This document shows positions 8,861 through 33,559 of a stretch of DNA of 64,000 nucleotides, in pieces. The DNA is from an uncultured Acidobacteriota bacterium. Lineage in GTDB: Bacteria; Acidobacteriota; JAQAZP01. A program made the translations under genes and the position numbers. Below the pieces are notes generated by a model. The model made no database searches and was not told the DNA's origin. It saw only the letters and a program-made list of their open reading frames with translations. The stretch is taken from contig CAWIIB010000009.1 in assembly GCA_963836075.1 (NCBI GenBank), positions 1,280,001-1,344,000 on the forward strand, written 5' to 3'. Numbering within the stretch: the first letter of the stretch is position 1; each line of letters opens with the position of its first letter.

Positions 8861-10471
8861 ATGAGGCATCGCTTGACACTCGACAATTGCCGGAAAAAGA
8901 GAAACCTGTGGATGCTGCCGATGGCACTGATCATTGCGGTGGTCATTGCCGGCTGCCTGCCAGGACCTGCCGCCCATGCGCAGTGTGATCCGCAGCAGAC
9001 GTTCAAGATCGTGCCGAGCGACGGCATTTATCAGCAGGGTTTCGGCTCCGCTGTGGCGACCAATGGGACCACCGCCATCATCGGGGCGCCTTATGACGAA
9101 GACGGCGACTTCTGGTCGGGCTCGGCCTATCTCTTCGACGTCGCCACCGGCACCCAAGTGGCCAAGCTGCTGGCCGACGACGGCGCCGAGCAAGATTTAT
9201 TCGGCTTCTCCGTGGCGATCAGCGGCACCACGGCCATCGTCGGGGCACATCAACACCACGAAAACTATACTGCACCCGGCGCGGCCTATCTCTTCGACAT
9301 CACCACCGGGGCCCAGATCGCCACGCTGCAGCCCGATGACGGTGCCGTGGGTGACCAATTCGGCTACGCCGTTGCGATCAACGACACCATTGCCTGCGTC
9401 AGTTCCCCCAGGAGAGTCGACTGGGATCACCTCGGCGGTGTGGTCTACCTGTTCGACCTGGCCACCGGGGCCCAGATCGGCAAAATCTGGCCCGACGACC
9501 ACGACTATGATGATTACTTCGGAAACTCCCTGGCGATGGACGACACTACCGCCATCGTCGGTTCACATTATGACGACGACAACGGTTCCGGCTCCGGCTC
9601 GGCCTATCTCTTCGACCTCACCACCGGGGCCCAGCTCGCCAAGCTGCTGCCCGGCGACGGTGATGAGGGTGACTCGTTCGGCTACTCCGTGGCGATCAGC
9701 GGCGGCACGGCCGTTGTCGGAGCCTGGTTCGATGAGCACAACGGCCTCCAATCGGGCTCGGCCTATCTCTTCGATACGGCCACCGGGGCCGAGATCGCCA
9801 AGCTGCTGCCCGGAGACGGCGCGGCCCAGGATGTCTTCGGCTGTTCCGTGGCGATCGACGGCACCACGGCCATGGTCGGAGCCTTCGGTGACAACTCCCG
9901 GACCGGAGCGGCGTATCTTTTCGACGGAGTAAGCGGGACTGAAACCGCCAAGCTCGTGGCCGATGACGGTGAGGAGTGGGACAGTTTCGGCAATTCCGTG
10001 TCGCTCTGCGGAAACGTAGGCATTGTCGGGTCGTACCTGGACACACACGGCACCATTTACTCCGGCTCGGCTTATCTTTTCGACACGAACTGCCCGGAAC
10101 CGCTCACCATCGGTGTCGATTACAGCTGTTCGCCGGCCGGCGGCACCCTGCCCTTCAGCACGCAGATGGATGTGTCTTTTCACAATTTATACTCCGAACA
10201 GGCACGCCGGGTTGCCGCCCGTATCGATGTCACGCTGGCCAACGGCCAGTTCTTCCACAACTGGATGGCCGGTTCCACCAACATTGCTGCCGGGGGGAGC
10301 TACAACACCAGCTGGAGCACGACGATCCCGCAATTGGGCTCCGTGCTTGGTGACAATATCTTCCTGCTGGTTGCCGAGGACGTGACCCCGGCACCCTTCA
10401 ACCAGCCGCCCCATCCGCCGGCCGGGGATAGCGACCAGGCATCATGCACGGTCACCGGGATCGCACCTTGA
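8861..10471 (+). CDS. Secreted FG-GAP repeat (beta-propeller) protein with conserved C-terminal NQPP domain
   Basis: Signal peptide, about seven FG.SVAI.G.TAIVGA...SGSAYLFD repeats, C-terminal ~115-aa domain ending EDVTPAPFNQPPHPPAGD. Start uncertain. Confidence 0.85.
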   Translation: MRHRLTLDNCRKKRNLWMLPMALIIAVVIAGCLPGPAAHAQCDPQQTFKIVPSDGIYQQGFGSAVATNGTTAIIGAPYDEDGDFWSGSAYLFDVATGTQVAKLLADDGAEQDLFGFSVAISGTTAIVGAHQHHENYTAPGAAYLFDITTGAQIATLQPDDGAVGDQFGYAVAINDTIACVSSPRRVDWDHLGGVVYLFDLATGAQIGKIWPDDHDYDDYFGNSLAMDDTTAIVGSHYDDDNGSGSGSAYLFDLTTGAQLAKLLPGDGDEGDSFGYSVAISGGTAVVGAWFDEHNGLQSGSAYLFDTATGAEIAKLLPGDGAAQDVFGCSVAIDGTTAMVGAFGDNSRTGAAYLFDGVSGTETAKLVADDGEEWDSFGNSVSLCGNVGIVGSYLDTHGTIYSGSAYLFDTNCPEPLTIGVDYSCSPAGGTLPFSTQMDVSFHNLYSEQARRVAARIDVTLANGQFFHNWMAGSTNIAAGGSYNTSWSTTIPQLGSVLGDNIFLLVAEDVTPAPFNQPPHPPAGDSDQASCTVTGIAP

Positions 10472-10492
10472 GAAATTCTGGGAGATACATCG

Positions 10493-11134
10493 ATGGATGT
10501 ACAGAAAACTTCAGGCCCTGCACCCGGGGAAGCGGTGGAAATCTGGGTGGTTGAAGCCAACGAACTGCTGCGGAATTCGCTGGAGGATGTGATCAGCCGG
10601 ACGGAGGGAATGCGCTGCCCGCTGGCGGCCAACTGCTGTGAAGCGGCGATCAGGGCGCTGGAAGCCGGTGAAGCGCCGGACATGGTGCTGATGGATATCG
10701 GCCTGCCCGGGATGAGCGGTGTGGAGGGGGCGCGGCGGGTTCGCGCCCTCTCCCCGTCAACCAGGGTGATCATGCTGACCCTTCACGAGGACCATGCGCA
10801 CCTCTTCGATGCACTCTGCGCCGGGGCTTCCGGCTACCTGTTGAAGCCGGCGTCCCGGGCCCGGGTGGTGGAGGCCATCCGCGAGATGTGCCACGGTGGT
10901 ACGGAAATCAATGCTGAGGTGGCCCGCCGAGTGCTGGGCATGCTCACCGAGCTGGAAGCACCGCCAGAGCAGATCGGACTGTCGGATCGGGAAGTGAAAA
11001 TCCTCCAGCTCCTGGTGGAGGGACTGCCACGCAGCAAGGTGGCCGAGAGGATCCTCCGTAGCGAGCAGATGGTCAACACCCACATTCGCAACATCTACGC
11101 CAAGCTGCAGGTAAACACCGGGGCCGGTCATTGA
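10493..11134 (+). CDS. Second NarL/LuxR response regulator, paralog of 8028..8708, possibly degenerate
   Basis: Long near-identical stretches with the first regulator (MRCPLA..CCE, LMDIGLPGMSG, CAGASGYLLKPAS, HIRNIYAKL). The acidic pocket reads VEAN and the C-terminus is shortened. Confidence 0.85.
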   Translation: MDVQKTSGPAPGEAVEIWVVEANELLRNSLEDVISRTEGMRCPLAANCCEAAIRALEAGEAPDMVLMDIGLPGMSGVEGARRVRALSPSTRVIMLTLHEDHAHLFDALCAGASGYLLKPASRARVVEAIREMCHGGTEINAEVARRVLGMLTELEAPPEQIGLSDREVKILQLLVEGLPRSKVAERILRSEQMVNTHIRNIYAKLQVNTGAGH

Positions 11135-11162
11135 AGAAGGAGACCCGGCGGCTGATGGTTGC

Positions 11163-11260
11163 TTATTCCGTCCGGCCCTCGATGGTGCAGTCCGCCGAAT
11201 TGGAGGAGCCCGCCGCCGGGTAGGGCGGCTGGTTGTCAGGCGCGGGCGTGGCGGCGGAAC
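11163..11260 (-). pseudogene. Orphan remnant of the NQPP C-terminal domain
   Basis: Hand translation of the minus strand gives SAATPAPDNQPPYPAAGSSNSADCTIEGRTE-stop (TAA at 11165-11163). Not in the ORF track. Confidence 0.7.
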
Positions 11261-11341
11261 ATTTTATCGTTCGCTCTCCTGTCGGATACGTCGAAGGTGC
11301 TGGTCGTTGAGAGGTCAATCCGCTCGCCTGGGTCCGCACTG

Positions 11342-11374
11342 AAAAAGCCGCACCGGAATCGAACCGGTGCGGCT
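11342..11374 (-). terminator. Intrinsic terminator of the 11406..13187 gene
   Basis: AGCCGCACCGG-N7-CCGGTGCGGCT hairpin followed by a T-run on the minus strand. Confidence 0.75.
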
Positions 11375-11405
11375 GTATTGGCGTTCCGTGCGAACAGGTC
11401 CGCTA

Positions 11406-13187
11406 CTAAAGGGAGCCCTCCACGGTGCTGGTGCTCTCCCCGGTGTCGCCTGCCGGCGGGTAGGGCGGCTGGTTGTAGGGCGCCGGTGTAACGTCCTCGG
11501 CGACAATGGTGAATTCTGTCAGCCCGTTAAGCGCTCCGAGAGCCGGCAGGTTCTGGCTCCAGGAGGTGACGTAGGTGGCTCCTGCCGCGATGTTTGCATA
11601 CCCGGCCCGCCAGGTGGCGATGAATCCGCCTCCGGCAAGGTCGATGTCGATGTGGGCGGCCATGCGGCGCGTCAAACCGGGATAGGTGTTGGTCAGGGTG
11701 ACGGTTATCGTTGTGGCGAACGGCAGGATTCCCATGTTCGGGGTGCAGTCGATTCCGGGGATGACCGTCGACACGGCCGGGAAGCCGCCAAGCAGGCCGC
11801 TGCTGTCCACCATCTGGGCGTAGACATCGTTGTTGCCCCAGCGGTGGTCGGTCCAGACGAGGATGGCGCCGTCGGCCCCGTCGGCGATGAGACGGGAGGA
11901 GGCCTGGATCTCCGGGCCCACCGTGAACGGCACGCCGGCGGCGGCCCAGAGGGTTGTTCCGGATGAGTCGATCCGCTGGCCGTAAATGTCGTAATCGATA
12001 CTGTTTCGGAAGTCCCGCCAGGTAATCACCGCGCCGCCGGTTCCGCTGCTGACGATCTGGGGGAAGCCACTCTGATCGCCGGCCGCGGTGCAGACCGGGA
12101 CGCCGTCGACCGTCCAGAGCGCCGTGCCCGCCGGGTTCAACCGCTGGGCGTAGATGTCGTAGTCGGTCCCGCGGTTGTCGGTCCAGGCGATGATGGCTCC
12201 GTTGGAGCCGTCGCTGATGATATCGGGATCGACCTGCTCGTTTGCCGCAGCGCACAGCAGGACGCCATTGGCGGTCCAGAGCGGGTTGCCCGCGGCAGTG
12301 ATCCGCTGGGCGTAGACATCGTGCTGCAGGCTGTCGCGGTAGTCATACCAGGTACAGATGGCGCCGCCGGCGGTGGTGGCGATCAGACGGGGTGCCGTCT
12401 GGGAACTGACCGCCGTGCAGGCCCCCACGCCGTCCACCGCCCAGACCGGAGAACCACTGGAATCGATCCGCTGGAGGTAGATGTCGAAGGAACTGCTGCG
12501 AAAGTCCTCCCAGGCCACGATGACCCCGCCGGCCCCGTCACTGACAGCTTCGGGAGCGGTCTGGTTGCCGGCGGCCGTGCAGACCGGTACGCCGTCGGCC
12601 GTCCAGAGCGGGGTGCCCGAGCTGTCCACCCGCTGGGCGTACAGGTCTTCGGTCCCGGAGGCCCGGTAGTCCTTCCAGATGATGATCACCCCGCCGGCGC
12701 CGTCGAGAACGATCTGGCTGTCCTGCTGGGAACTGGTCTCGGTGCAGACCGCCACACCGTTGGCTGTCCAGAGCGGTGTGCCGCTGCTGTCCAGCCGCTG
12801 GACGTAGATATCGGAGTTCGTCGCCCGGTAATCGTTCCAGGCGATGAAGGAGCCACCGGCCCCGTCTGCCACCACGGCCGGGCTTTCGGCAACGGTGGTG
12901 GCCGTGGTGCATACGGCCACGCCGTTTGCGGCCCAAAGCTCCATGCCTTCGTCATCCAGACGCTGGGCGTGGATATCGGAGGTGCCGATGCCGTTGCGCT
13001 GGTCGGTCCAGGCGATGATCGCGCCGGACGAACCGTCCCCGACCATTGCCGGCAAATACTGGTGGTCGTCCAGCGTGCAGACCGGTGTGTTGGCGATGGG
13101 CTGATCCGACCACTGGGCCGTGGCCGGCCAGGTGAAGGAGATAATTATCAGCAGCGAGAACCATGTGAAAGCAGCGGGGAATCTCAT
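11406..13187 (-). CDS. Secreted repeat (probable beta-propeller) protein with conserved C-terminal NQPP domain
   Basis: Signal peptide (..PATA-QW), about seven DG.GGAII.W.D.R...DIYAQR.DSSG..LW..NGV.VCT repeats, C-terminal EDVTPAPYNQPPYPPAGD domain. Confidence 0.85.
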   Translation of the reverse strand: MRFPAAFTWFSLLIIISFTWPATAQWSDQPIANTPVCTLDDHQYLPAMVGDGSSGAIIAWTDQRNGIGTSDIHAQRLDDEGMELWAANGVAVCTTATTVAESPAVVADGAGGSFIAWNDYRATNSDIYVQRLDSSGTPLWTANGVAVCTETSSQQDSQIVLDGAGGVIIIWKDYRASGTEDLYAQRVDSSGTPLWTADGVPVCTAAGNQTAPEAVSDGAGGVIVAWEDFRSSSFDIYLQRIDSSGSPVWAVDGVGACTAVSSQTAPRLIATTAGGAICTWYDYRDSLQHDVYAQRITAAGNPLWTANGVLLCAAANEQVDPDIISDGSNGAIIAWTDNRGTDYDIYAQRLNPAGTALWTVDGVPVCTAAGDQSGFPQIVSSGTGGAVITWRDFRNSIDYDIYGQRIDSSGTTLWAAAGVPFTVGPEIQASSRLIADGADGAILVWTDHRWGNNDVYAQMVDSSGLLGGFPAVSTVIPGIDCTPNMGILPFATTITVTLTNTYPGLTRRMAAHIDIDLAGGGFIATWRAGYANIAAGATYVTSWSQNLPALGALNGLTEFTIVAEDVTPAPYNQPPYPPAGDTGESTSTVEGSL

Positions 13188-13456
13188 GTGTTGTTTTCCT
13201 CTGGAAAGTGCCGGATCTCCGGATTGGAACGGGAACGAGCTTCCTGACTTGCGGAAGATCGCGTTTCGCTGTTCATCAGTGGGAATGGAATCCCCTTTGA
13301 TGGCGTCGTATGATCCAGAAAAAAACAGAATAGCTGAAACGAATTTCTGAACGGATTTCCATTCGAATATGGAAACACTATATACCCTACGAAGTTCATA
13401 GGCAATTAAAAAACCCTATGATATTAAAATAAAGATCGGATGATGATATCTGGTTT

Positions 13457-14032
13457 TCACCCCACCTGGCGGTGGCGGAAACAGTCGGTGGTGTGGTCGT
13501 TGACCATGCCCACCGCCTGCATGAAAGCATACATGATGGTGGGGCCTACGAAGGTGAAGCCGCGCTTTTTCAGGTCGCGGCTGAGCGCTTCAGCTTCCGG
13601 AGTTTTTACGGGGATTTCAGCCATACTCTTCCAGCGGTTGCGGATCGGCTTGCCGCCCACAAAGGCCCAGAGGTAGGCGTCGAAGGAGCCGAACTCCTTT
13701 TGCACCTTGAGATACGCCTGTGCGTTGGCCACCGAGGCCCGTATCTTCAGCCGGTTGCGGACGATGCCAGGGTTGGCCAGCAGGGAGGCGATTTTCTTCT
13801 CGGTGTAGCGGGCCACCTTCCGCGGGTCGAAGTTGTCGTAGACCGTGCGGTATTCGGCGCGCTTTTTAAGGATCGTATCCCAGCTCAGCCCGGCCTGGGC
13901 CCCCTCGAGGATCAGCATCTCGAAGAGGTGGCGGTCATCGTGGTTGGGCAGGCCCCACTCCTCGTCATGGTAGGTGATGGCCCGTTCGTTCGCAGCCCAG
14001 CTGCAGCGCTTGATGGTGTTCTTTGCCGTCAT
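13457..14032 (-). CDS. tag: DNA-3-methyladenine glycosylase I
   Basis: RCSWA, YHDEEWG, LEGAQAGLSW, IVRNRLKI, FVGPTIMYAFMQAVGMVNDH...C. Confidence 0.95.
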   Translation of the reverse strand: MTAKNTIKRCSWAANERAITYHDEEWGLPNHDDRHLFEMLILEGAQAGLSWDTILKKRAEYRTVYDNFDPRKVARYTEKKIASLLANPGIVRNRLKIRASVANAQAYLKVQKEFGSFDAYLWAFVGGKPIRNRWKSMAEIPVKTPEAEALSRDLKKRGFTFVGPTIMYAFMQAVGMVNDHTTDCFRHRQVG

Positions 14033-15054
14033 TCCTCGCTCTCCATCCAGAAGTGGCGGAAGTCCGCCCACTCCTGATGGTCGGTGACCCAGTTGGCGTA
14101 GACGGCCACCCCGGTGAAGGCGCCCCCGCCGGTACCCTCCTTCTCCAGCCCCCGGCGCACGCCCAGTGCGCCGTTGGCCATGTTCTCCACCAGCGGGTCC
14201 GAGGCCGGGCTTCCCTCTTCATACGAGGGGATACCGATCAGCACCTGGTGGCCCGGGTAGGCCGAGGCCCAGCGGACCAGCAGGCGGGTCTGGTGGCCGA
14301 GGAAGGCCAGGTAGTGTTCGGCGGTATCCAGGCTGGTGTCATACCCCATCAGCACCGTCTGGTCGGTCCGGGCCATGGTTTGGCGGTAGAAATCGCCGGA
14401 CCAGAAGAGGCGGTCCATGAACCCGAGGGATATGCCGAAGGGGCCGCTGCGCCGGGTGGCGTGGCTGAGGACCGCATCCGGGCCGAGGCGCTGCTTCACG
14501 GCGGCCAGCAGATCGAGATAGCCCGGGTGGTGGTCCAGCAGCGGTTCGAAATTGAGGTGCACGCCGTCAAAGCCGGCGGCCATCATCTGATCCACTGTCT
14601 CGAGAAAGCGTTCCACCCACCGCGGGTCCTGGAGGTCCAGCTTGCCGGTGAGTGAGCCCAGCCAGGCCAGGTGAACCACTTCCGGGCTTTGTGCCATCAG
14701 CCGGCCCAGCAGGGGCGAAGGGGAGTCCTCGATACTGCCGTCGGGCAGTACCGGGCCCACGTGGATGTAGATGTAGCGGATGCCATGCCGGCTGACCGTC
14801 TCGGCCATGGCGTCGAGGTCGGCGTCGGTCACCGGTTCTCCGCTGCGGACCGAAACCCCGGTGAACCACTTGTGTCCGGCCCAGAGGCCGTTGAGCCCCT
14901 GGTCGAAACGGGCTTCAGTTTCCGGGCGCGGCTCCCAGACGACCCAGAAGATGGCAGCGGAGAGGATGCCCAGCAGGAAGGCGGCGGTCATGGCTTTCAA
15001 CGCCAGCCTCAGGAACCGTCCGCGCTCCGTATTCCTGGTCGCTCGGCGGTTCAT
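14029..15054 (-). CDS. Membrane-anchored GH18-like TIM-barrel protein
   Basis: N-terminal TM, GFDGVHLNFEP (variant of the GH18 DxxDxDxE motif), LMGYD. Translationally coupled to its neighbours. Confidence 0.6.
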   Translation of the reverse strand: MNRRATRNTERGRFLRLALKAMTAAFLLGILSAAIFWVVWEPRPETEARFDQGLNGLWAGHKWFTGVSVRSGEPVTDADLDAMAETVSRHGIRYIYIHVGPVLPDGSIEDSPSPLLGRLMAQSPEVVHLAWLGSLTGKLDLQDPRWVERFLETVDQMMAAGFDGVHLNFEPLLDHHPGYLDLLAAVKQRLGPDAVLSHATRRSGPFGISLGFMDRLFWSGDFYRQTMARTDQTVLMGYDTSLDTAEHYLAFLGHQTRLLVRWASAYPGHQVLIGIPSYEEGSPASDPLVENMANGALGVRRGLEKEGTGGGAFTGVAVYANWVTDHQEWADFRHFWMESEE

Positions 15055-16442
15055 GGTGCCTCCTCCCCGGCCAGCAGCCGGGCCGCTTCCGGGGCCAGGG
15101 TTTCGGCAATCACCCGGTGCCCCTCGCTGTTCCAGTGGCTGGCCACCCAGTAGCTGTCAAACTCGCCGGTATAGGCGCTCTCCGTTTCCAGGTAGGGGAT
15201 GCCCAGCTCACTCAGGATAGCACGCAAGCGGCGGTCCGCGTCCAGGTTCTCCTGGTCGGCGTTGAACACGGCAAGCTGGGCCCCGTCCTCCCGCACCAGG
15301 CAATCCAGGTCGCGGAGCAGCAGCCCGGTCACTGCCCAGGCCTCCTCCTCGTCCACCTCCCCGGTCGCCACGTGGCCCAGGGCCACCTGGCGCAGCAGTG
15401 ACTCCACGAAGATCAGGGTGGAGGAATGGCGGAGCAACGGGCCCGAGGCCAGGCCGGTACCGCTCTGGTCGGGCACCGGCACGTTGGTCAGCAGCAGCGT
15501 CGAACCGTGGCGGATGAAGCAGGGTTTGTGCCCCCGCCAGTAGCGGTCTCGCACGTTGAACGGCACATCGTTGCTGCAGAACTGCAGCAGCACCAGGTCG
15601 GGACTGCAGCCCCGGCCGTAGTGCACATAGGCCAGCAGTTCCTGGTCGGTGGAGAAGCCCCCCACGCCGAGGTTGATCACTTCCAGCGGGCCCCGGGGAG
15701 CCAGCAGCCGGGCCAGCCGCGCGGTGTAGGTCTCGTCTTCGTTCACCGTGTAGGCTTCGGTGTGCGAGTCGCCGAGACAGACGATCCTTCTCACGCCCGC
15801 CGGTTTCTCCTCCGCGGGAAGCACGGTGCGGAAGCCATCCAGGCTGATTTCCTCACGGGAGGTGAACAGCTCGTTGTCCCGCTCCACCACCAGGCCGGGC
15901 CGCAGTTTCCAGCCCAGTTGCGGGTCGTGCACCGCGAAGAGGTTGTTGTGCGAACGTCCGGGCAGGATAAAGGCGCCGATGAACAGGTCGAGGAGCAGGA
16001 AGAGGACAAGGTAGATGACGATCAGCGCCGCCTGGCCCCGGAATCTCCCCCGGTCCGCCCTGCGGGACCGGACAGCGGATTTGACGGTGAGGAGGACCAG
16101 CCCCACGGCCAGGCCGGCGGCAAAGGGGCCCCGGTGGCCGCCGAATCCCACGACCGCCGCGACCAGCGCCAGGAGCGCCAGGGGGACAAAGCCCACCCGG
16201 CGCAGGATGGGCCGGGTCAGTTCCAGCAACAGCTCCCGCCAGGAGGAGCTGAAAAAGAGGCCGGTCCAGACCAGCCCGGCCAGCAGTGCCAGCAGGCGGA
16301 AAGGGCCGGTGCGGCCGGTGGCGATCAGCTCCGCGGCGGCGGAGATTGCCGGGAAGAGGGCCGGGGCAAGCCAGGCCGCCAGAACCACCAGGCGCAAAGG
16401 CCCGTTCTCGGTCGGTGCTGGCTGGTCTTTACCCAGGATCAT
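15051..16442 (-). CDS. Membrane-bound SGNH/GDSL hydrolase family protein
   Basis: Several N-terminal TMs, then LGDSHT, NLGVGGFSTDQE, FCSND and HWNSEGH blocks. Confidence 0.8.
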   Translation of the reverse strand: MILGKDQPAPTENGPLRLVVLAAWLAPALFPAISAAAELIATGRTGPFRLLALLAGLVWTGLFFSSSWRELLLELTRPILRRVGFVPLALLALVAAVVGFGGHRGPFAAGLAVGLVLLTVKSAVRSRRADRGRFRGQAALIVIYLVLFLLLDLFIGAFILPGRSHNNLFAVHDPQLGWKLRPGLVVERDNELFTSREEISLDGFRTVLPAEEKPAGVRRIVCLGDSHTEAYTVNEDETYTARLARLLAPRGPLEVINLGVGGFSTDQELLAYVHYGRGCSPDLVLLQFCSNDVPFNVRDRYWRGHKPCFIRHGSTLLLTNVPVPDQSGTGLASGPLLRHSSTLIFVESLLRQVALGHVATGEVDEEEAWAVTGLLLRDLDCLVREDGAQLAVFNADQENLDADRRLRAILSELGIPYLETESAYTGEFDSYWVASHWNSEGHRVIAETLAPEAARLLAGEEAP

Positions 16443-16606
16443 CTGAGCCCCATACGGCGGATGCGGGTGGCGACGCTGGTGCGGTGAAAGGAAAAATTGT
16501 ACTGGGCGGGGGGCCCGGATTCAAGCGGGTTGGCATTGCGGCCCGGGGGCCGGTTTATTACAATGCCGGCTCGCTGTTCGGATGGACCGGAACTGGAAAT
16601 CAAAGG

Positions 16607-17164
16607 ATGAGCACCATGAACAAGGAACTGCTGGAACTGTGGCCCGAAATAGAGTGGATCGAGGATAGTGAACTGCGGGAGAAAACCGCCCGCACCTGGG
16701 AACTGGCCCTGGAGCGCAGCGCGCTCACCGGCGAGGACCTGAAAGAGATCCCCTTCACCCTGCTGGTGAAGGAATGCCCGGCTTCCTTTATGGACCACAA
16801 GCGCTGCGTGGTCCACATCTCCCGCGACTCGGCGAAAGCGATGCAGGCCTTCTTCGGCGACAACCTGCCGATCCACATGGACACCGTGATCGCCGGGGCG
16901 ATCCTGGCCGATGTGGGCAAACTGCTGGAGTACGAGCTCAAGGATGGCAAGTCGGTGGTGGGGATGACCGGCAAGTATCTGCGCCACCCCTTCACCGGTG
17001 TGGCCCTGGCCATGGAGTGCGGGGTTCCCGAGGCGGTCTGCCACATCATCGCCGCCCATGCCGGCGAGGGGGACAAGGTGGTGCGCACCACCGAGGCCTA
17101 CATCGTCCACCACGCCGACTTCATGAGCTACGAGCCGTTCCGCACGGCTGACAAGTGGAAGTAG
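16607..17164 (+). CDS. HD-domain-like (HDIG) phosphohydrolase
   Basis: DHKR, ILADVGKLLEY (HD reads AD), LRHPF, HIIAAH, VHHADF. Confidence 0.75.
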   Translation: MSTMNKELLELWPEIEWIEDSELREKTARTWELALERSALTGEDLKEIPFTLLVKECPASFMDHKRCVVHISRDSAKAMQAFFGDNLPIHMDTVIAGAILADVGKLLEYELKDGKSVVGMTGKYLRHPFTGVALAMECGVPEAVCHIIAAHAGEGDKVVRTTEAYIVHHADFMSYEPFRTADKWK

Positions 17165-17254
17165 GCGGCAGTTCCTGTCATTGCGAGCCGCCGACCCGCT
17201 GGGGCAGCGGGAGATATGTAAAAGAAACAGTTCCTTGTACAGTTAGGCTTTCAC

Positions 17255-17430
17255 GGTCCTGGCAGCAATGACCGGCGGCACATTGGAGCACTGTTGCCCG
17301 CTTGCGAGCCTGGTTCCGGGGTAGGAGAAGGTCTGATTGGTGAAGCTCCGATTCTGGTTAGGCGCCCGAACGAAGCTATCCCGTTTAAGAGATTACTCGA
17401 CGATCTCCTCCGGGCCAGGGCCAGAAGTTA
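17255..17430 (+). ncRNA. Putative IS110 bridge RNA
   Basis: The non-coding left end has a 5' stem-loop (GGCAGCAATG...CATTG...TGTTGCC), TTGCGAG (17302-08, left target + core), GCTCC (17345-49, reverse complement of the right target) and TTAAGAG (17385-91, left donor + core). Boundaries approximate. Confidence 0.6.
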
Positions 17431-17453
17431 ACCACCACACAAGGAACTGTCAG

Positions 17454-18842
17454 ATGAAGGATAGCAAGAAGAAGCGAGAGAAGTCACGGTCAAAGATGAA
17501 GAAGCTGGACGAGACGATGGAGCAGGTCAACCCTTCGGCGGCTGGTATCGACGTGGGATCCCGCAAGCATCTGGTGGCGGTATCACCGGAGCGGGATGAG
17601 CAGCCGGTTCGTTCGTTTGACTGCAAGACACCTGACCTGCATGAGATGGGCCGTTGGCTGACCAGTTGCGGCGTCACGACAGTAGCGATGGAGAGTACCG
17701 GGGTCTACTGGGTCCCGGTGGCCAATGTGCTGGAGCAGCATGGGCTGGAGGTGGTACTGGTGGATGCCCGCCAGTCCAGGAACGTGCCGGGGCGGAAGAA
17801 GACGGACGTGCTTGACTGCCAGTGGATCCGGAAGCTCCATGCCTACGGTCTTCTCCAAGGCGCCTTCAGGCCCGAACGTCAGATCCAGACGTTGCGGGGA
17901 TACTGGCGTCATAGAGCAGGTCTGGTGGAATCGCGTTCCACGCAGATCCAACTGATGCAGAAAGCACTGGAGCAGATGAACCTGCAACTGCATAAAGTAC
18001 TCAGCGACATTGCCGGCGTCACTGGCATGAAGATCCTCAGGGCCATCATCGACGGTGAGCATGATCCACAGGTGCTGGCCAAGATGAGGCACAAGCAAGT
18101 GAAGAGCAGCGAGGATGAGATCGTCAAGTCGCTGACCGGCGACTACCACGAAGAACAGTTGTTCATCCTCCAGCAGGCCGTGGAGCTCTACGATCATTAT
18201 ATGGAGAAGATCGCGGCCTGTGATGCCGAGCTCGAACGCTACCTGTCAACATTGGAGAGCAAGGGTGATCTGGCCGCCTATGACGGTAAAGCCCAGACCA
18301 GCCGTCGAAAGAACCAGCCCTGCTTCGACCTCAGGCAAGAGCTCTATCGCATCAGTGGTGTTGACCTGACCCGGATCGACGGCATCGATGCACTGACTGC
18401 CCAGACAGTGATCAGCGAATGCGGTATCAACATGAACCCGTTCCCCACGGTTAAGAACTTCTGTTCGTGGCTCGGCCTGAGCCCGAACAACAGGATAACC
18501 GGAGGGAAGATCAAGCGACGTGGGACACGCAAGGTGGTTAACCGGGCATCCACCGCGCTACGACTGGCGGCCCAAAGCCTCCACCGCAGTAACTCATACC
18601 TCGGTGCTTACCTGAGGCGGATGAAGGCCCGCATCGGGCCTCAAAAGGCGACAACTGCAACCGCTCACAAGCTGGCCCAGTTGATCTACCGGATGCTCAA
18701 ACATGGAATGACGTTCGTGGACCAGGGACAAGAGCTGTTCGAAAAGCAACATCAGGAACGATACCTGAAAGCTGTGAAAAAACGTTTGAAAGCAATCGGA
18801 TACGACCTCGTAGCGACAGACACCGGGGTTGTTGTTTCTTAA
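17454..18842 (+). CDS. IS110 family transposase (DEDD recombinase)
   Basis: GIDVGSRKH, AMESTGVYW, KKTDVLDCQW, IDGID, WLGLSP.NRITGGK, ATAHKLAQLIY. Confidence 0.95.
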   Translation: MKDSKKKREKSRSKMKKLDETMEQVNPSAAGIDVGSRKHLVAVSPERDEQPVRSFDCKTPDLHEMGRWLTSCGVTTVAMESTGVYWVPVANVLEQHGLEVVLVDARQSRNVPGRKKTDVLDCQWIRKLHAYGLLQGAFRPERQIQTLRGYWRHRAGLVESRSTQIQLMQKALEQMNLQLHKVLSDIAGVTGMKILRAIIDGEHDPQVLAKMRHKQVKSSEDEIVKSLTGDYHEEQLFILQQAVELYDHYMEKIAACDAELERYLSTLESKGDLAAYDGKAQTSRRKNQPCFDLRQELYRISGVDLTRIDGIDALTAQTVISECGINMNPFPTVKNFCSWLGLSPNNRITGGKIKRRGTRKVVNRASTALRLAAQSLHRSNSYLGAYLRRMKARIGPQKATTATAHKLAQLIYRMLKHGMTFVDQGQELFEKQHQERYLKAVKKRLKAIGYDLVATDTGVVVS

Positions 18843-18942
18843 GAGGAGCCCGCAGGGCGACGAAGCAATCTCTCTTCAGGCATTCAAGTGCCGGGGAGAT
18901 CGCCACGTCGCCCTGCGGGCTCTTCGCGATAACAGAGAGGGA

Positions 18943-23953: not shown

Positions 23954-24030
23954 GGCATTGTCCGCGACAGCGGCCTGCTATATATTGTCGTAACGGAGCA
24001 TGAACGATTTTTCCAGGAGGAACGGGGGTC

Positions 24031-24510
24031 ATGGGCTCGCTGCAGGAAGAACTGATGAAAGCCAGGCTGGTGGACAAGAAGCAGCGGAAAAAGGCTGCCC
24101 ACGAGAAGCGTGTCCACCAGAGCAAGGTCGGCCGGGAGGGGCTGGAGAAAGAGAAGCTGGAGAAGGAGCGTCGGCTGGAGGCCGAGGCCGAAGAAAAACG
24201 AGCCAGGGACCGGCAGATCGATGAAGAGCGAAAAAAGGCCCTCGAGCAGGCGAGCAGCGGGAACCGGTTGAAATCGCTGATCGCCGAGGCCACGCTGCAG
24301 GGCTTTGGCGGCGCTCGGCGGTTCTCCTATGTCAACCGCAACAACCGGGTCCCCTTCCTCGAGGTGAGCGACGATGCTGCCCGCCGGCTGACTCACGGTG
24401 AGCTGGCCATCATTGAAACGGAAGAGGGCAAGGTGGGGTTGGTGCCCGGCACCGCCGCCCGGGAGATCGTTGAGCTGGATGGCGAAATTGTACGCTTCTG
24501 GAACCGCTAG
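24031..24510 (+). CDS. DUF2058/YaiL-like protein
   Basis: MGSLQEELMKARLVDKKQ, coiled region ending RARDRQIDEER, RRLTHGELAI. Confidence 0.7.
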   Translation: MGSLQEELMKARLVDKKQRKKAAHEKRVHQSKVGREGLEKEKLEKERRLEAEAEEKRARDRQIDEERKKALEQASSGNRLKSLIAEATLQGFGGARRFSYVNRNNRVPFLEVSDDAARRLTHGELAIIETEEGKVGLVPGTAAREIVELDGEIVRFWNR

Positions 24511-26606: not shown

Positions 26607-26609
26607 TGA

Positions 26610-27878
26610 TCACTCCGCGTCGGGGCCGGGGGGGAAGATGATATACATCCCGTCATCACTCATCTTCGCGTCACCGGGAACCGGGTATCGTTCGTAGAGG
26701 CTGATTTCCAGCCGCTGGGCCAACTCGCCGAAGCGTGCCTTTTTCAACGCCACCGTCCAGGGGACCATCAGCAGGTTGTCCCCCCGCTCCACCTTTTCAC
26801 CCTCCACCCGGAACTGGGCGGCCAGCTGCTCCAGGACCAGGGTCGTTGTCTGCTCGTCCGGGGTGCGGATAATCGCCGAGACCAGGGTGCCGTCGGGGGA
26901 GATGTCCTCGCAGGGACGTTTGACGTGACGCGCCTTGCGGGCCAGCCGGTTGGGGATCTGGGTCAGATACTTGCTGGCCATGCTGCAAAAGTGGACCGCG
27001 GTTTTGCTGCCCGGGGTCTCCAGGGTTTTGCGCATCATCGCCTGGGCTTTTTCCCTGCTGCCCAGGGTGTTGCGCAGGGTGGTGCCGAAACGGGCCGGGA
27101 TGTCGGTGCCAAAGACTTTCTCCGGTGGGGCCTCGAAGGGGATTTTTCGGCTCAACGGCTCTCCCGGCTGGAGGTCGGTCCTTTTGGCCACCCGCTGGAA
27201 GTCCTCATGATCGAAGTAGAGCAGCTCGTGAAGGTTGACGAACTCGGCACCCAGCTCGATGGCTTTCTCCACGATGCGGTCGGTGATGTCAGCGATGGGC
27301 AGGCTGGGAATCTCCACCGCCACGGTCCAGTCGTAGCTCCTGGCCCGCTCCACCAGGTGAGCTTCCTTGTACGAGGCGAGATGGCAACGGATCTCGTCCA
27401 CCCCGGCCCCGTGCATCCGGGTCATCTGTTCCTCGGTCATGTCGGCATTGGCGGTGAAGAACTGGATGTGGAAGTCGGGCCCGCACTCCTCGCGGAGTAG
27501 CCGGGCGTAGTGCTCGGCCCGGTCCATGTAGAGGGTTGGCTCGCCCCCGGTGAGACAGACCGCATCCGGGTCGCTGAAGCGGACCAGCCTGAACAGGTCC
27601 TCGTCGCTGTTGATGGTGAACTCGTCACCCCGGGTCAGGTCGGAACCCATGGGGTTCGAACAGTAGAAACAGTTCTTGTGGCATTTTTCGCCGATGGTGA
27701 GGCAGAGCCGGCCGCCCATCAGACAGCGGCGGCACCCCTCGGGCAGAAAGTGCGCCCACAGATTGAAATCCGGTTTTATCTGTTCCCGGTGGCCGCCAAG
27801 CAACCGTTGCCAGAGGTTGCTGGCCTGGTCCGGGCTGATCATCCCCGGGGTGTCGTTTGTATCGTGATCTATGCTCAT
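26610..27878 (-). CDS. Radical SAM protein of unknown function
   Basis: LPEGCRRC..G, CHKNCFYC, LTGGEP, DEIRCH, VAVEIPSLP, FVNLHEL, VHFCS...K. Resembles the uncharacterised PFL-activase-related family common in archaea. Confidence 0.8.
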   Translation of the reverse strand: MSIDHDTNDTPGMISPDQASNLWQRLLGGHREQIKPDFNLWAHFLPEGCRRCLMGGRLCLTIGEKCHKNCFYCSNPMGSDLTRGDEFTINSDEDLFRLVRFSDPDAVCLTGGEPTLYMDRAEHYARLLREECGPDFHIQFFTANADMTEEQMTRMHGAGVDEIRCHLASYKEAHLVERARSYDWTVAVEIPSLPIADITDRIVEKAIELGAEFVNLHELLYFDHEDFQRVAKRTDLQPGEPLSRKIPFEAPPEKVFGTDIPARFGTTLRNTLGSREKAQAMMRKTLETPGSKTAVHFCSMASKYLTQIPNRLARKARHVKRPCEDISPDGTLVSAIIRTPDEQTTTLVLEQLAAQFRVEGEKVERGDNLLMVPWTVALKKARFGELAQRLEISLYERYPVPGDAKMSDDGMYIIFPPGPDAE

Positions 27879-28016
27879 TACCGGCCCCCTTCCACTGCGT
27901 CGGCGGCGATTCGGAATTTCCCGCGGGGCGGGAAAACGGAGCACTCACTATAGGGTGAGGGGTCAAACCTTGTCAACGAAGGGGAAACGGCTGTTCGGAC
28001 GCAGCCTGGGAAGAGG

Positions 28017-30479
28017 TCAGGGCTTGCCGATTTCGGGGAATTCGTTCTTGAGATGGGTCTCCAGCCTGGTGAAACTGGCAACAATCTGCTGGTGCAACTC
28101 CTGTGCCTCGACCAGGTTGCCGGAAGCGGCATTGTTCTCCAGGAGCTTGGCCAGCTCGCCCAGAGTTTCGGTGCCCAGACTGGTGGAGGCGCCCTTGATG
28201 CTGTGCGCCGTGCGGCGGACCGTATCGGCGTCGGAATCGGCAATGGCCTGTTCCAGGTTCTCCAGGCGTTGTGGAATATCCTCCAGGTAATCGCGCAGCA
28301 GTTCTTCGAGGAACCCCCGGTCGCCGGAAACCAGGGCCAGGGCCTTTTTCATGTCGATCGGGCTTTTTCCTGGTTCCCCTGTCTTTGCGGCAGGCTGGTT
28401 TTTCCGGTCCAGGGCGCCGGAGGTGGTTGCGGCGTGATAGTCACCATTCCTGCTGCTGCCGTGACCCAGCCAGGAGGATATTATCCCGTACATCAGCTCC
28501 TGGTTGATCGGTTTGGTAATGTAGTCGCTCATTCCTGAGTCGAGGCACATCTCGCGGTCACCGGTCATGGCATGAGCGGTCATGGCGATGATCGGCAGGT
28601 CAGCGTATTTCTCCTGCTGGCGGATGGCCCGGGTGGCTTCCAGGCCGTCCATTACCGGCATCTGGATGTCCATCAGCACCAGGTCCACCTTTTCCGTTTC
28701 CAGGAGCTCCAACGCTTCGCGGCCGTTTGCCGCAGCCACCACGGTGTAGCCGACGTCCTCGAGCAGCCTCACCGCCAGTTTGGTGTTTACCGGGTGGTCC
28801 TCGGCCAGAAGGATAGTATGCTCGCCGGAATTGCTCGCCTTCCTCTCTTCCAGGTCGTAGCGGGTCAGCAGTTCGGGATCCCCGGCCGAAATCTCGCGTG
28901 CACCATCCTGCGGGGTCATCACCCGGTTGATCGCCTCCAGCAGCAGCGAGTGCTTGATCGGCTTGACGAAGTAGCCGTCGATCCCGATCTCGCGGCAGCG
29001 GTTGGCATCGCCCCGTACTCCGAGGGCCGTCATCAGCAGCAGTTTCGGCTGCTTTTTCAGGTTGGAGGTCCGGATCTGCCGGGCCGTGGCAAATCCGTCC
29101 AGGCCGGGCAACTTGAGATCGAGAATCACGAGGTCGTAGGTTGCCGACCCGGCCGACCGGGCGATCATCTCAATGGCATCGCCGCCGCAGCCGCCCTCCT
29201 CCACCGCACAGCCCAGCTCGCTCAACTCCTGGCGCAGGATCAGGCGGTTGTTGCTGTTGTCGTCCACCACCAGCACCCTGGCCCCCTTGAGCTTCGGGCG
29301 GGCGTTTCCGTTCTCATGGGCCTGGACCGTCTGCACCGGCACCATGGGCAGGGTGAAGAAGAATGTGGCCCCCTCGCCGGCGGTGGTCTTCAGTCCCAGC
29401 TTTCCGCCCATCACCTCCACCAGTTCGCGCGATATGGTCAGGCCGAGGCCGGTGCCGCCGAACGTCCGGGTGAATGATTCGTCGGCCTGGGTAAAGGAGT
29501 CGAATATGCTCTCCACTTTTTCTTCGGGGATCCCCATGCCGGTATCCGAGACGGTGAAGCGGATGTTTGTCATGCCCTCCGGGCCCGCGGGCGCGGTGTC
29601 GATTTTCAGCAGCACTTCGCCTTTCTCGGTGAATTTGATCGCGTTGCCCACCAGGTTGATCAATACCTGACGCAGCCTGGTGGGATCACCCTTCACCTGG
29701 CTGGGGACGTCGCTGTCCACGTGTCCGATCAGTTCCAGTGCCTTGCCGGCCGCGGGATAGGCCATCACGTCGAGGACGCCGTCGGCCAGTTCGCGCAACC
29801 CGAAGGTGATCCGTTCAAGCTCCAGCTTGCCGGCCTCGATCTTCGACAGGTCCAGGATGTCATTGATCAGGGAGAGCAGCGAGTCGGCGCAGCTCTTCAC
29901 CGTGCCCATGTATTCCTGCTGCTCTCCAGTCAGTTTGGTGGTCATGGCCAGATCGATCATGCCCATGATGCCGTTGAGCGGGGTACGGATCTCGTGGGAC
30001 ATGTTGGCCAGGAAACTGCTCTTGGCCGTGCTGGCGGCTTCGATGGACTTGCGTTGCCGGATCAGTTCGGTGATGTCCTCGATGACACCGTGAAAGCAGA
30101 TAACCTCACCCGCTTCGTTGAGGACGGCATGGGAACTCTCCCGGCACCAGATCAGCGTCCCGTCTTTCTTCTTCAGCCGCAGTTCGATTCCCCGGAGTTT
30201 CCCGTCGTCCAGCAGCCGCTGCGAAAACTCTTCCCGGTCGCCCGGATCGGGGTAGAGGTCCACGGCGTCGATGTTCATGAATTCTTCGCGGGAAGCGTAG
30301 CCAAACATGTCCACCAGGGTCTGGTTGACATAGATGAAGGTGCCCCTGATGCCCGGATGGTTCCAGTAGAGGCCCACCGGCAGGTTGTCGATGGTCTGCG
30401 CCAGCTCACCACTGGGAATGATGTGATGTTCACTGGCCTGGGAGACCAGGTCGCTGATTGTGTGGTCCGAAACGCCCAT
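28017..30479 (-). CDS. Cytoplasmic hybrid histidine kinase (PAS-HisKA-HATPase-REC-REC-Hpt)
   Basis: PAS/PAC, FLANMSHEIRTPLNG, NAIKFT, DTGMGI, GGTGLGL, two receiver domains, AHSIKGAS. Confidence 0.95.
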   Translation of the reverse strand: MGVSDHTISDLVSQASEHHIIPSGELAQTIDNLPVGLYWNHPGIRGTFIYVNQTLVDMFGYASREEFMNIDAVDLYPDPGDREEFSQRLLDDGKLRGIELRLKKKDGTLIWCRESSHAVLNEAGEVICFHGVIEDITELIRQRKSIEAASTAKSSFLANMSHEIRTPLNGIMGMIDLAMTTKLTGEQQEYMGTVKSCADSLLSLINDILDLSKIEAGKLELERITFGLRELADGVLDVMAYPAAGKALELIGHVDSDVPSQVKGDPTRLRQVLINLVGNAIKFTEKGEVLLKIDTAPAGPEGMTNIRFTVSDTGMGIPEEKVESIFDSFTQADESFTRTFGGTGLGLTISRELVEVMGGKLGLKTTAGEGATFFFTLPMVPVQTVQAHENGNARPKLKGARVLVVDDNSNNRLILRQELSELGCAVEEGGCGGDAIEMIARSAGSATYDLVILDLKLPGLDGFATARQIRTSNLKKQPKLLLMTALGVRGDANRCREIGIDGYFVKPIKHSLLLEAINRVMTPQDGAREISAGDPELLTRYDLEERKASNSGEHTILLAEDHPVNTKLAVRLLEDVGYTVVAAANGREALELLETEKVDLVLMDIQMPVMDGLEATRAIRQQEKYADLPIIAMTAHAMTGDREMCLDSGMSDYITKPINQELMYGIISSWLGHGSSRNGDYHAATTSGALDRKNQPAAKTGEPGKSPIDMKKALALVSGDRGFLEELLRDYLEDIPQRLENLEQAIADSDADTVRRTAHSIKGASTSLGTETLGELAKLLENNAASGNLVEAQELHQQIVASFTRLETHLKNEFPEIGKP

Positions 30480-30591
30480 GGTTGCTACCCCGGCGAAAAG
30501 CGAGGAAATGCAGTTGTCTGCCGCCGGATGGCAGAGTCCTCCCCGTGCAACTCTTCCCGGGTTTAATTATCGGCAGAAAATCGGGAAAGAA

Positions 30592-32034
30592 TTACCTGCG
30601 TTTCCGGCGTGGACGGCTTGAGGGACGGCGGCGGCCCTGTCCGGGCGGTTTCTCCGCTTTCGGTTCGGGCGGCACCCGCTCCGCCGGCTGTTCGGCGGCG
30701 CTGACCGCAGCCTCCGCCGGGTCGGCTTCGGGCGGGTTGAGGTAGAGGTTGAGCAGCAGCGAGACCAGCGAATGGGCATCGTCCTGCTTCAGCAGGTCCT
30801 TGGCCAGCGGCTCCAGAGTTTCCAGGTCACGGGCCGAGGCCTTGTCCTCCAGCACCCGGATCTGGTTCAGCAGGCGTTGGCGGGCCGATTTCTCCACATC
30901 CTCGTCGGTGGGGATGCGGCCCTCCTTGACCACCAGGTGGTGGGCGTTCACCAGGCGGTTGAAGTTGAGCAGGTCCACGGCGGAGACAAAGGATATGGCC
31001 ACGCCCGACTTGCCCATCCGGCCGGTGCGGCCGGCCCGGTGAATGTAATCCTCCGGGGTCTGGGGGGCGGAATAGAGAAAGACGTGGGAGACGTCCTCCA
31101 CGTCGATGCCCCTCGAGGCCACGTCGGTGGTCACCAGGTGCTTGACCTTCTTCTGCCGGAAGTTGGCCATGATCTTCTCCCGCCGCTCCTGGGCCAGGTC
31201 GCCGGTGAGCATCGCCACCTTGAGGCCCCGGCGCCGCAGGGTGTTGAAGACCATCCGCACGTCGTCCTTGGTGTTGCAGAAAATGATCGACGACGAGGGC
31301 CGCTCGATCTCGATCAGGCGGTAGAGGTCCCGGTCTTTTTCCATCTGGCGGGTGATATAGTAGCGATGCTCCACCTCCTGGACGTAGATCGAGTCGTCGG
31401 AGAGGGCGATCTTGTGCGGATCCCGCTGGTAGGACTGACCCAGCCGGACGATGGAGGCGGGGAAGGTGGCCGAGCCGAGCAAAGTCTGCCGATCCTTCGG
31501 GCAGCGCTCGAGGATCGCGGATATCTCCTCGTAGAACCCCATGTCCAGCATGCGATCCGCCTCGTCCAGCACCAGCACCTTCAGTCCACTGAGATCCAGG
31601 GTGCGGCGCCGCAAGTGGTCCAGTACCCGCCCGGGCGTGCCGGCCACCATCAGGGCGCCGGCCTCGAGGTCACGCATCTGCTTGGTGTACGAGGCGCCGC
31701 CGTAGATGCAGGTCACCAGCACGCCGGTGCAGGCGTTGATCTGCGCCAGGTCACCGGCGAACTGCAGGGCCAGCTCGCGGGTCGGAGTGAGGGCGAGGAA
31801 CTGAACCTTTTTCAGGCCGGTGTCCAGCCGCATCGAAGCGGGAATCCCGTAGCAGGCGGTTTTGCCGGTGCCGGTCCGCGACTGGATCATCAGGTCGCGA
31901 CCCGCCATGGCCAGGGGGATTGCTTCGGCCTGGACATCGGTGGGTTTGGTGTAGCCCATCCTGGCCAGCCCCTCAAGGATAGCCGGGCTGAGACCCATCT
32001 CTTCAAACGTTGGTGTACTCAATCTGTTGCTCAC
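30592..32034 (-). CDS. DEAD-box RNA helicase
   Basis: Q motif (PTDVQ), TGTGKT, PTRELA, TPGR, DEADRMLDMGF, SAT, SRGID, HRAGRTGR. Confidence 0.95.
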   Translation of the reverse strand: MSNRLSTPTFEEMGLSPAILEGLARMGYTKPTDVQAEAIPLAMAGRDLMIQSRTGTGKTACYGIPASMRLDTGLKKVQFLALTPTRELALQFAGDLAQINACTGVLVTCIYGGASYTKQMRDLEAGALMVAGTPGRVLDHLRRRTLDLSGLKVLVLDEADRMLDMGFYEEISAILERCPKDRQTLLGSATFPASIVRLGQSYQRDPHKIALSDDSIYVQEVEHRYYITRQMEKDRDLYRLIEIERPSSSIIFCNTKDDVRMVFNTLRRRGLKVAMLTGDLAQERREKIMANFRQKKVKHLVTTDVASRGIDVEDVSHVFLYSAPQTPEDYIHRAGRTGRMGKSGVAISFVSAVDLLNFNRLVNAHHLVVKEGRIPTDEDVEKSARQRLLNQIRVLEDKASARDLETLEPLAKDLLKQDDAHSLVSLLLNLYLNPPEADPAEAAVSAAEQPAERVPPEPKAEKPPGQGRRRPSSRPRRKRR

Positions 32035-32169
32035 TCTTCTCGGGGCCGGACCCGCCGGTTCGATCGGGTGATCGGCAACGGTCGGCAGCCGGATACTGTT
32101 CGTTCTTCAGGCGTAGCGACTATAGGAGGAAGACGGGGGACTGTCAACAGGATCGTCGGTGACGGGAAG

Positions 32170-32204
32170 GGAAAGGGCCTCTCCCCCGGGGAGGGGAGAG
32201 GCCC
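32170..32204 (-). terminator. Probable terminator of the metalloprotease gene
   Basis: GGGCCTCTCCCC-N6-GGGGAGAGGCCC 12-bp stem just past the stop codon, followed by a pyrimidine tail on the minus strand. Confidence 0.65.
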
Positions 32205-32212
32205 GTAAAAGA

Positions 32213-33559
32213 CTAGTTTCCAGTGGTGCTGCAGGAGTCGCTGTCCGTGCTGCCCGACGGTGAGTAGGGCGGCTGGTTGTACGGCGCTGCCGTGATGTCG
32301 GTGCCGATGAGGGTGAACGTGTTCACCCCGTGCACTCCGGGCACGTCCGGCAGGTTGACCCCGAACGGCGTGTTGTAGCAGTAGCCGGGGCTCACGTTGG
32401 TGGCGCCGGCCCGCCAGTTGAAATAGGTGGTGCCGCTGGCGAGGGTCACGTTGAGCTTGCCGTGGAGCCGGCGGGTGAACCAGTCGTCGTTGCAGAGCTG
32501 GGGCCACAGCTGCACCGTGTAGGGCAGGGTGCCGCTTTCCGGGACACAGCCGATGATCGTGTGCATCGTGTCCCCTGACAGGGTGACGGTCAGCGTCAGG
32601 TTGTAGTCGTTTTCCGCCCCGGAGGCGCCGATGACGCGGGTGTAATAGGTGCCGGCCGGGAGGCCGGTCCCCGACACCGTCTCGTTGTCGGTGGAGGTCG
32701 TGGCGATATCCAACAGGGACTGGGCCGGGTTGTAGAGGTAGAGGCTCAGGTTGCCGCTGGCGTGGGTGAAGGTGATATCCACCTGGACGTTGGCTCCCTC
32801 GCTGACGCTGAAGGAGAAATAGTCCTCGTCGCCGGAGCAGATCTGCAGGTTGTTGATCGTGCCGGCGCTGATTGCACTGGCCCCGGCGAACGAGTCGTTG
32901 TCCTCGTAGCCGTCGTCGGTGCAGCCGCCGCAGACACCGTAGATCGCCTGGATGCCGGCGATGTCGTCGGAATGCAGGGTCCGGGCGTAGGTCTGGCCCG
33001 GGCTGCCGTAGCCATACATCGTTTTGGCCGAGTCACCGCCGCCGTAGAGGTCTGCGAGGCAGAGGTAGTGGCCGAACTCGTGGGTCGCGATGTTCCAGAT
33101 GTCGAACTGGCTGTACGTTGGGGTGCCCACGCCGTTCCAGGTGTAGCTCTGGTCATTGAACACCAGGTCGTTCTCGGTGACGTTGCCGCCTGAGGTCCAG
33201 ATGTAGGTGGCCGCGATGTAGCCGCCGCCGTCGGGCGGGGTGGTATCGAAATAGACCAGGTTGATATTGTTGTAGGTCACGCTGGTGCCTGTGGTGGTGC
33301 CGCCGTAGGTGAACTCGAAGCAGGCATTGGCGCCGTTCCAGGCGCCCGCGCCGGCCTGGATGGCGGCGATCTGTTCGGCGGCGGTGCCGGCGGCGGAGTC
33401 GACACAGTTGGGGTTGATGCGATAGTTCTCGCCCATCGGGCTGGACTGGTAATCCCAGTCATAACCGCAGAGGCCGTAACCGGCGGCGTTCTGAGCCGGG
33501 CCGGCCAGGGTCAGCAGCAGGCCGACCAGGGCGATCAGGGTAATCCGGGTGAATTTCAT
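32213..33559 (-). CDS. Secreted matrixin-like (metzincin) metalloprotease + PPC-like domain + NQPP C-terminal domain
   Basis: Signal peptide, ATHEFGHYLCLAD, Met-turn KTMYG, DDIAGIQAIYG, DDGYEDND/DEDYFSF (PPC-like), C-terminal TDITAAPYNQPPYSPSG. Confidence 0.88.
   Translation of the reverse strand: MKFTRITLIALVGLLLTLAGPAQNAAGYGLCGYDWDYQSSPMGENYRINPNCVDSAAGTAAEQIAAIQAGAGAWNGANACFEFTYGGTTTGTSVTYNNINLVYFDTTPPDGGGYIAATYIWTSGGNVTENDLVFNDQSYTWNGVGTPTYSQFDIWNIATHEFGHYLCLADLYGGGDSAKTMYGYGSPGQTYARTLHSDDIAGIQAIYGVCGGCTDDGYEDNDSFAGASAISAGTINNLQICSGDEDYFSFSVSEGANVQVDITFTHASGNLSLYLYNPAQSLLDIATTSTDNETVSGTGLPAGTYYTRVIGASGAENDYNLTLTVTLSGDTMHTIIGCVPESGTLPYTVQLWPQLCNDDWFTRRLHGKLNVTLASGTTYFNWRAGATNVSPGYCYNTPFGVNLPDVPGVHGVNTFTLIGTDITAAPYNQPPYSPSGSTDSDSCSTTGN

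Follow-up and report, generated by a model that had tools for sequence, protein, structure and literature searches.

A lineage-restricted terminal Ig-like domain on exported proteins of an uncultured acidobacterial genus, a candidate docking tag

A 64,000-nucleotide stretch of the genome of an uncultured Acidobacteriota bacterium (the window; G000:C9:1280001-1344000, where G000 is the source genome) encodes three proteins with unrelated bodies that all end in the same immunoglobulin-like (Ig) domain of ~120 amino acids, recognizable by an NQPP motif in a proline-rich loop, a cysteine pair and a terminal proline. Terminal sorting and anchoring modules are a known kind of element, but this domain is uncatalogued. 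Several times, new sorting systems first came to light through terminal tags spread across a genome, the C-terminal domain (CTD) of the T9SS (type IX secretion system) and PEP-CTERM among them. Here we describe the position, copy number, predicted fold, exchangeability and distribution of the domain. We favour the reading that it is a lineage-specific docking tag, which would retain exoenzymes on the cell surface or matrix, and hold the case for this role to be evenly balanced. The three genes and their terminal domains are:

8747-10471, + strand: FG-GAP_2 repeat protein (cargo 1), likely start near 8912, with a signal-peptide-like N-terminus.
10106-10471, + strand: NQPP Ig-like terminal domain of cargo 1, 121 amino acids, ending C-T-V-T-G-I-A-P-stop; the modelled copy (predicted local distance difference test score (pLDDT) 97.7).
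11406-13187, − strand: beta-propeller repeat protein (cargo 2), TIGR04275-like, below cut-off.
11406-11768, − strand: NQPP Ig-like terminal domain of cargo 2, 120 amino acids.
32213-33622, − strand: M10 metzincin and PPC domain protein (cargo 3), likely start near 33559, with a signal-peptide-like N-terminus.
32213-32569, − strand: NQPP Ig-like terminal domain of cargo 3, 118 amino acids.

The original prediction had proposed a shared tail on three unrelated exported proteins of the window. All three tails are where it placed them and carry every motif that it listed, and the bodies are indeed unrelated (best cross BLAST E value, 0.55). The tails of cargo 2 and cargo 3 show 39–50% identity to that of cargo 1. 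Pfam and NCBIfam annotated the three bodies but returned no match to the tails.

A hidden Markov model (HMM) built from the three tails recovered 221 open reading frames (ORFs) of G000 on the first pass and 226 matches in 225 ORFs at convergence, with no match at E ≤ 10 among the reversed ORFs, so that the sharing cannot be put down to chance. In total, 198 copies were near full length and 193 of these end within 10 amino acids of the stop codon, as foreseen from only three examples; N-terminal, internal and tandem copies occur besides the terminal ones. In 150 of the 193 terminal tails the NQPP motif sits 23 residues from the C-terminus, and the final residue is proline in 164 of the 193, compared with 233 of 3,115 other genes. 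Co-occurrence with signal peptides, also predicted, was scored with a heuristic of our own (not SignalP) that allows any start within the first 120 codons. By this measure, 54 of 56 complete tagged ORFs from two other genome records were positive, as were 129 of the 155 tagged G000 ORFs of at least 400 amino acids (135 of 193 overall), compared with 21 of 180 cytoplasmic proxies. Half of the misses in G000 (29 of 58) look like frameshift fragments. Many tagged genes of this genome are frameshifted (for example, L248:3929-5657), and none of four DNA runs mapped on one such gene bridged the break. A possible membrane helix was found in 3 of 178 called tagged genes, and no viral contig matched the domain. 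The tagged proteins include C25, S8, M28, BNR and arylsulfotransferase families. One further form is a tag-only lipoprotein that consists of a lipobox, a Ser/Thr/Pro linker and one NQPP domain (L145:6381-6875 (+) and L162:1498-1992 (+)); it is common to G000 and its relative G001 (74% identical) and was not found in a second relative, G002, a 100% complete genome.

Tails within G000 have a median pairwise identity of 45%. Identity is 0.58, 0.62 and 0.47 at the three codon positions, and four-fold degenerate third positions (0.47, versus 0.40 expected from codon usage) are near saturation. This indicates selection acting on a protein domain, as opposed to a DNA repeat of recent origin. An AlphaFold2 model on a 63-row alignment (pLDDT 97.7) predicts an eight-strand sandwich in which the long, ordered proline-rich loop precedes the last strand. 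The nearest solved folds are the fibronectin type III (FnIII) domain of RbmA (Z 13.0, r.m.s.d. 2.4, 107 residues aligned, 11–15% identity), transglutaminase/FXIII domains (12.1), the AlkC Ig domain (11.4) and CARDB (10.7). These scores are nearly tied, so the fold is best described as generic Ig/FnIII. Among atlas models, the likeness is to Ig domains of DUF11 type (TM-score 0.70–0.75), and neither the T9SS CTD nor cohesin is among the fold matches listed for the tail model. Cys9 and Cys115 co-occur in 131 of 192 tails (odds ratio 15.7; 4.4, p 0.02, after dereplication to 88), a pairing that suggests a disulfide between the first and last strands. Surface loop residues are 81–100% conserved over the 88 dereplicated tails, which come from many unrelated cargo types. 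R36, R40, R55, the aromatic residue 58 and N60 would face outwards near the NQPP loop, judging from strand alternation in the model.

The tails had been described as matching no recognized system. This view still stands: none of 63 members matched a Pfam family, the three window tails have no NCBIfam match, no PDB sequence matched (best E value, 0.57), and the tail is an all-beta, soluble module that lacks the transmembrane helix and basic tail of PEP-CTERM, the motif and transmembrane helix of LPXTG proteins and the helical repeat of S-layer homology (SLH) domains. A match to a characterized Ig-like family had been named as grounds for rejection; the fold did prove to be Ig-like, but no characterized family matches by sequence. 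No conserved motif was found ahead of the domain in the tagged proteins. A Cys-rich subfamily of six tails (L236-L240 and L243) carries a T-C-N-C motif and lacks the NQPP loop, and a search with this divergent subfamily returned 16 proteins, none naming a family for the domain. No published description of the domain was found in the literature, as judged from titles and abstract openings, with few subscription journals covered.

A domain of this fold could also be a binder of an environmental substrate or surface, similar to a carbohydrate-binding module, or a stabilizing Ig spacer of CARDB (PF07705) or DUF11 (PF01345) descent that spread by gene-end recombination without a sorting role. The presence of CARDB and DUF11 among the structural neighbours is consistent with such an origin, as is the Cys-rich subfamily without the NQPP loop. 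CARDB and DUF11 domains, however, are usually internal or repeated spacers, whereas the tag is nearly always single and terminal. None of its 63 members had an HMM match to these families, and language-model likeness to them is weak (0.91, under the bar for recognition). The conservation of the surface loop across so many kinds of cargo and the excess of final prolines also argue against a binder or spacer, which we consider decidedly unlikely.

To assess how widely the domain occurs, we surveyed genomes of the phylum. Of 41 genomes in one survey and 401 in another, the same three carried it, G000, G001 and G002, which belong to one genus; the larger survey scored few candidates per genome and may therefore miss weak relatives. 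The domain is thus lineage-restricted, as had been proposed. A single tail query gave 129 matches in G001 and 100 in G002, and a pattern scan of a genome collection returned 71 loci from two records (among the best 80 of 155 matches). Among 1.84 billion representative proteins, 513 matched, and of the best 150 of these 146 have the domain at the terminus, 8 have two copies and 4 have an internal or N-terminal copy. Similarly, 154 of 156 copies were terminal in 143 loci fetched from other genomes and metagenomes. The domain also marks the secretome of an uncultured group.

The Ig tag is not the only terminal module on this cargo. Clustering of C-termini that lack it revealed a second module of 330 amino acids, of FG-GAP type and ending in -AAGRF, on 146 ORFs of G000 (for example, L146:1264-2268), with none in the window. 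Its model is a six-bladed propeller whose fold neighbours are integrin alpha heads, fungal lectins and kelch domains. Only these three genomes gave strong matches; a survey of 151 genomes gave a single weak one outside them. The two tails never occur on one protein (218 Ig versus 146 propeller ORFs in G000; 156 versus 24 in the fetched loci), and 113 of 181 Ig-tagged bodies have a propeller-tailed homologue. In five Ig/propeller cargo pairs, taken from the top of the list, identity is 70–74% up to the module boundary, and homology stops at the propeller start in all five and at the Ig start in three. Untagged homologues of tagged bodies numbered 56: 26 resemble pieces left by frameshifts, and the remaining 30 are free. 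Six of these free ones end in dockerin-like repeats, and Pfam Dockerin_1 scored over cut-off in all three tested. Dockerin-like tails on 8–11 proteins and a cohesin-domain lipoprotein possibly form a small docking system (L258:1-615 (-); L259, L260 and L263). This lipoprotein is present in all three genus genomes (83–88% identical) and has homologues in 31 of 101 phylum genomes. Dockerin- and cohesin-like modules are noted in a Gram-negative degrader in an earlier report (PMC2386152).

Dockerin (PF00404) and its partner cohesin (PF00963) offer one comparison for the tag: dockerin, too, is a terminal module of exoenzymes, and it replaces the tag on homologous cargo in G000. Unlike dockerin, the tag is all-beta, ~120 amino acids long and free of duplicated calcium loops, and no receptor or scaffoldin was found for it. 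We infer docking for three reasons: the same terminal place is filled by three folds that are unrelated to one another, among them an established docking module; the domain is also accepted in tandem, inside proteins and on a lipoprotein; and none of the protein readers tested shares the distribution of the tag. In the mechanism that we propose, cargo with predicted signal peptides would cross the inner membrane by Sec, fold in the periplasm, where the probable first-to-last-strand disulfide would form, and leave by a general route, most plausibly a type II secretion system (T2SS)-like one. The terminal Ig domain, presumably uncleaved, would then bind a single conserved ligand on the surface or in the matrix of its own cell, more likely by a small margin a glycan there than a protein receptor. 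The binding face would probably be the patch of arginines and aromatic residues (R36, R40, R55, Y/W58 and N60) beside the NQPP loop. The propeller and the rarer dockerin tails would be alternative anchors for the same cargo, and the tag-only lipoprotein may serve as the ligand's membrane tether. A parallel exists in Vibrio, where RbmA (FnIII) and Bap1/RbmC (propeller) both bind Vibrio polysaccharide according to two reports (PMC10903470; 10.64898/2026.08.03.742583). This is an analogy and not homology: the RbmA of Vibrio cholerae exists free, as a tandem dimer, where the domain here tags ~200 enzymes, and the propeller here has six blades where that of Bap1 has eight.

Several observations weigh against docking. 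No ligand or receptor of the domain was identified in this analysis. The near tie of RbmA with transglutaminase/FXIII domains means that the fold says little about function, and Bap1 is not among the fold matches listed for the propeller. With a median net charge of −3, the tails are mildly acidic. The tag-only lipoprotein was not found in the G002 assembly, complete as it is, and no repeat-rich or multi-module scaffold protein was seen. Among 64 adjacent pairs of tagged genes, only 11 are mixed Ig/propeller pairs (30.9 expected), giving no hint of paired expression of the two. Finally, terminal position, single copy and final proline would fit an export signal just as well.

Three of these results, on the lipoprotein, the scaffold and the mixed gene pairs, bear as well on a proposal in which the Ig tail binds the propeller tail, or itself, so that a cellulosome-like mesh of enzymes grows from the tag-only lipoprotein. 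The two modules have the same distribution and exclude each other on single proteins, and the tag-only lipoprotein is built like the cohesin lipoprotein (lipobox, Ser/Thr/Pro linker and one beta-sandwich), as such a mesh would suggest. The depletion of mixed neighbours, the absence of a multi-module scaffold among the proteins seen and the failure to find the lipoprotein in G002 speak against it, and we regard a mesh as very improbable. Complex prediction of the propeller with the Ig tail scored 0.00 twice and weighs neither way.

The tag might alternatively be an outer-membrane export address that stands in for the T9SS CTD and is read by a T2SS-like system (a GspC-like subunit or the secretin) or by an unrecognized translocon, with the propeller as a second signal class. 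The template for this reading is the T9SS CTD (PMC8047123). The type A CTD (PF18962/TIGR04183) and FlgD_ig (PF13860) are, like the tag, terminal folded beta-sandwiches on unrelated, Sec-exported multidomain proteins, and they share its cargo families, which are typical of the T9SS, and its position in homologous proteins. Among 120 listed homologues of cargo 2 from elsewhere, 41 carry PF13860 and/or PF18962 and one a dockerin (counted by hand), and many show no tail family; one (P0201) has TIGR04183 over cut-off. A BNR/Vps10 protein of G000 (L257:1-2409 (+)) ends in a decayed Por_Secre_tail (Pfam, 16 bits; cut-off, 27) and is possibly acquired cargo that has not yet been re-tagged. In addition, tagging looks near-obligatory, given only 30 free untagged homologues, six of them with dockerin, and a T2SS-like cluster (L149:2454-13797) with a secretin that ends in a cohesin domain is present in all three genus genomes. 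Ig-fold T2SS signals (VesB, PulA and the PelI Fn3 domain) provide a precedent, as graftable T2SS information resides in the Ig-fold of VesB (PMC12369372); those signals are substrate-specific, whereas the tag is genome-wide.

Against an export address, the secretin is phylum-wide (35 of 40 genomes, or 36 of 41 with the unpublished G025), whereas the tag was found in 3 of 401. It is unlikely that one signal would have both a 330-residue propeller and a dockerin as its equivalents, and N-terminal, internal, tandem and lipoprotein copies exist. The tag also differs from the T9SS CTD in its ~120-residue length, cysteine pair, proline-rich loop, terminal proline and exchangeability with a propeller, in an hhalign probability of 0.3%, and in a host that lies outside the Fibrobacteres–Chlorobi–Bacteroidetes (FCB) group and has no PorV over cut-off. 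An export address is in our view a strong rival, though a less likely one than docking, and it need not exclude docking. The suggestion of a secretion or display tag thus survives in part: the tag sits in the same place as T9SS and FlgD tails in homologous cargo, but the propeller/dockerin swap and the tag-only lipoprotein lean towards docking over a dedicated secretion signal.

Searches for a reader covered the known machineries. Exosortase (PF09721) was absent from all three genus genomes and detected in G018 and a control, and sortase (PF04203) was likewise found in none of the three, with positive controls in three. SprA and PorP/SprF had no match in the three genomes, with positive controls also silent; the PF18962 search was empty with a silent control, and FlgD_ig gave only matches below cut-off. 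A PorV candidate scored 48–49 bits (cut-off, 90; control positive) and 105.7 bits as FadL/TodX, making it FadL-type. The distribution of a PorU-like C25 protein (202 bits; cut-off, 420) does not follow that of the tag: 52 of 151 phylum genomes have it, and none was found in G002. The protein is itself untagged and lies in a cassette with a PqqD-radical SAM protein and an S24/S26 peptidase (L266:11742-17447 (-); L267:12071-17946 (-)), the remaining gene of which, broken in G000, presumably encodes an HPr-kinase-like protein. The cohesin-tipped secretin was set aside as a reader on account of its phylum-wide occurrence, and a PDZ-bearing GspC was not seen among the T2SS-like cluster proteins scanned. 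A beta-barrel adjoining tagged genes, with matches in 17 of 101 genomes, was also rejected. Two TamB-POTRA-Omp85 fusions of ~2,150 amino acids, which stay candidates, are present in all three genomes (L144:7657-14079; L150:6957-13487). Type IV pilus genes are present in G000, which also has three near-identical pilin genes (C9:2255596-2256860 and C9:2569194-2569631).

Two loci of the window had been put forward as machinery, an Omp85-type gene and an operon combining resistance-nodulation-division (RND) and ATP-binding cassette (ABC) transporters. Neither could be linked to the tag, and no neighbour of tagged genes recurs beyond synteny in the 143 fetched loci. The former (61838-64000, +, running past the window end) encodes a 968-residue protein with peptidase-like, PD40 propeller and weak Omp85 domains. 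The latter (36195-49491, −) encodes an AcrB-ABC ATPase fusion, a second AcrB, a membrane fusion protein and an ABC2-peptidase M1-Golvesin fusion, which are ordinary transport domains.

Collectively, the exchange of one tail for another on the same cargo, be it Ig, propeller, dockerin or T9SS, points to a lineage that re-labels acquired exoenzymes. A broader proposal, which we make tentatively and hold to be rather unlikely, is that this lineage has a surface display of its own, with two unrelated, exchangeable tags (the Ig domain on ~200 proteins and the six-bladed propeller on ~140), whose reader would be an export or attachment apparatus not yet described, or else a single polymer specific to the lineage. 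If so, acquired cargo would have its T9SS CTD replaced by this system, and about a tenth of the genome would go into a dense coat of exoenzymes; ORFs with either tag span ~11% of G000, an overestimate as they were measured from stop to stop. A search for the ligand needs no culture, since the domain is small, expressible and looks stable.

The window has further features besides the tagged genes. The FG-GAP tagged gene is flanked by a propeller-sensor histidine kinase and two similar LuxR-type response regulators (4742-11134, +). Upstream of the metzincin lie two small exported proteins (33638-34153 and 34564-35094, −) that are alike by eye, have no family match and are perhaps its pro-domain or inhibitor. 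An Rfam search of the window gave no match, and an IS110-family transposase is encoded at 17337-18842 (+).

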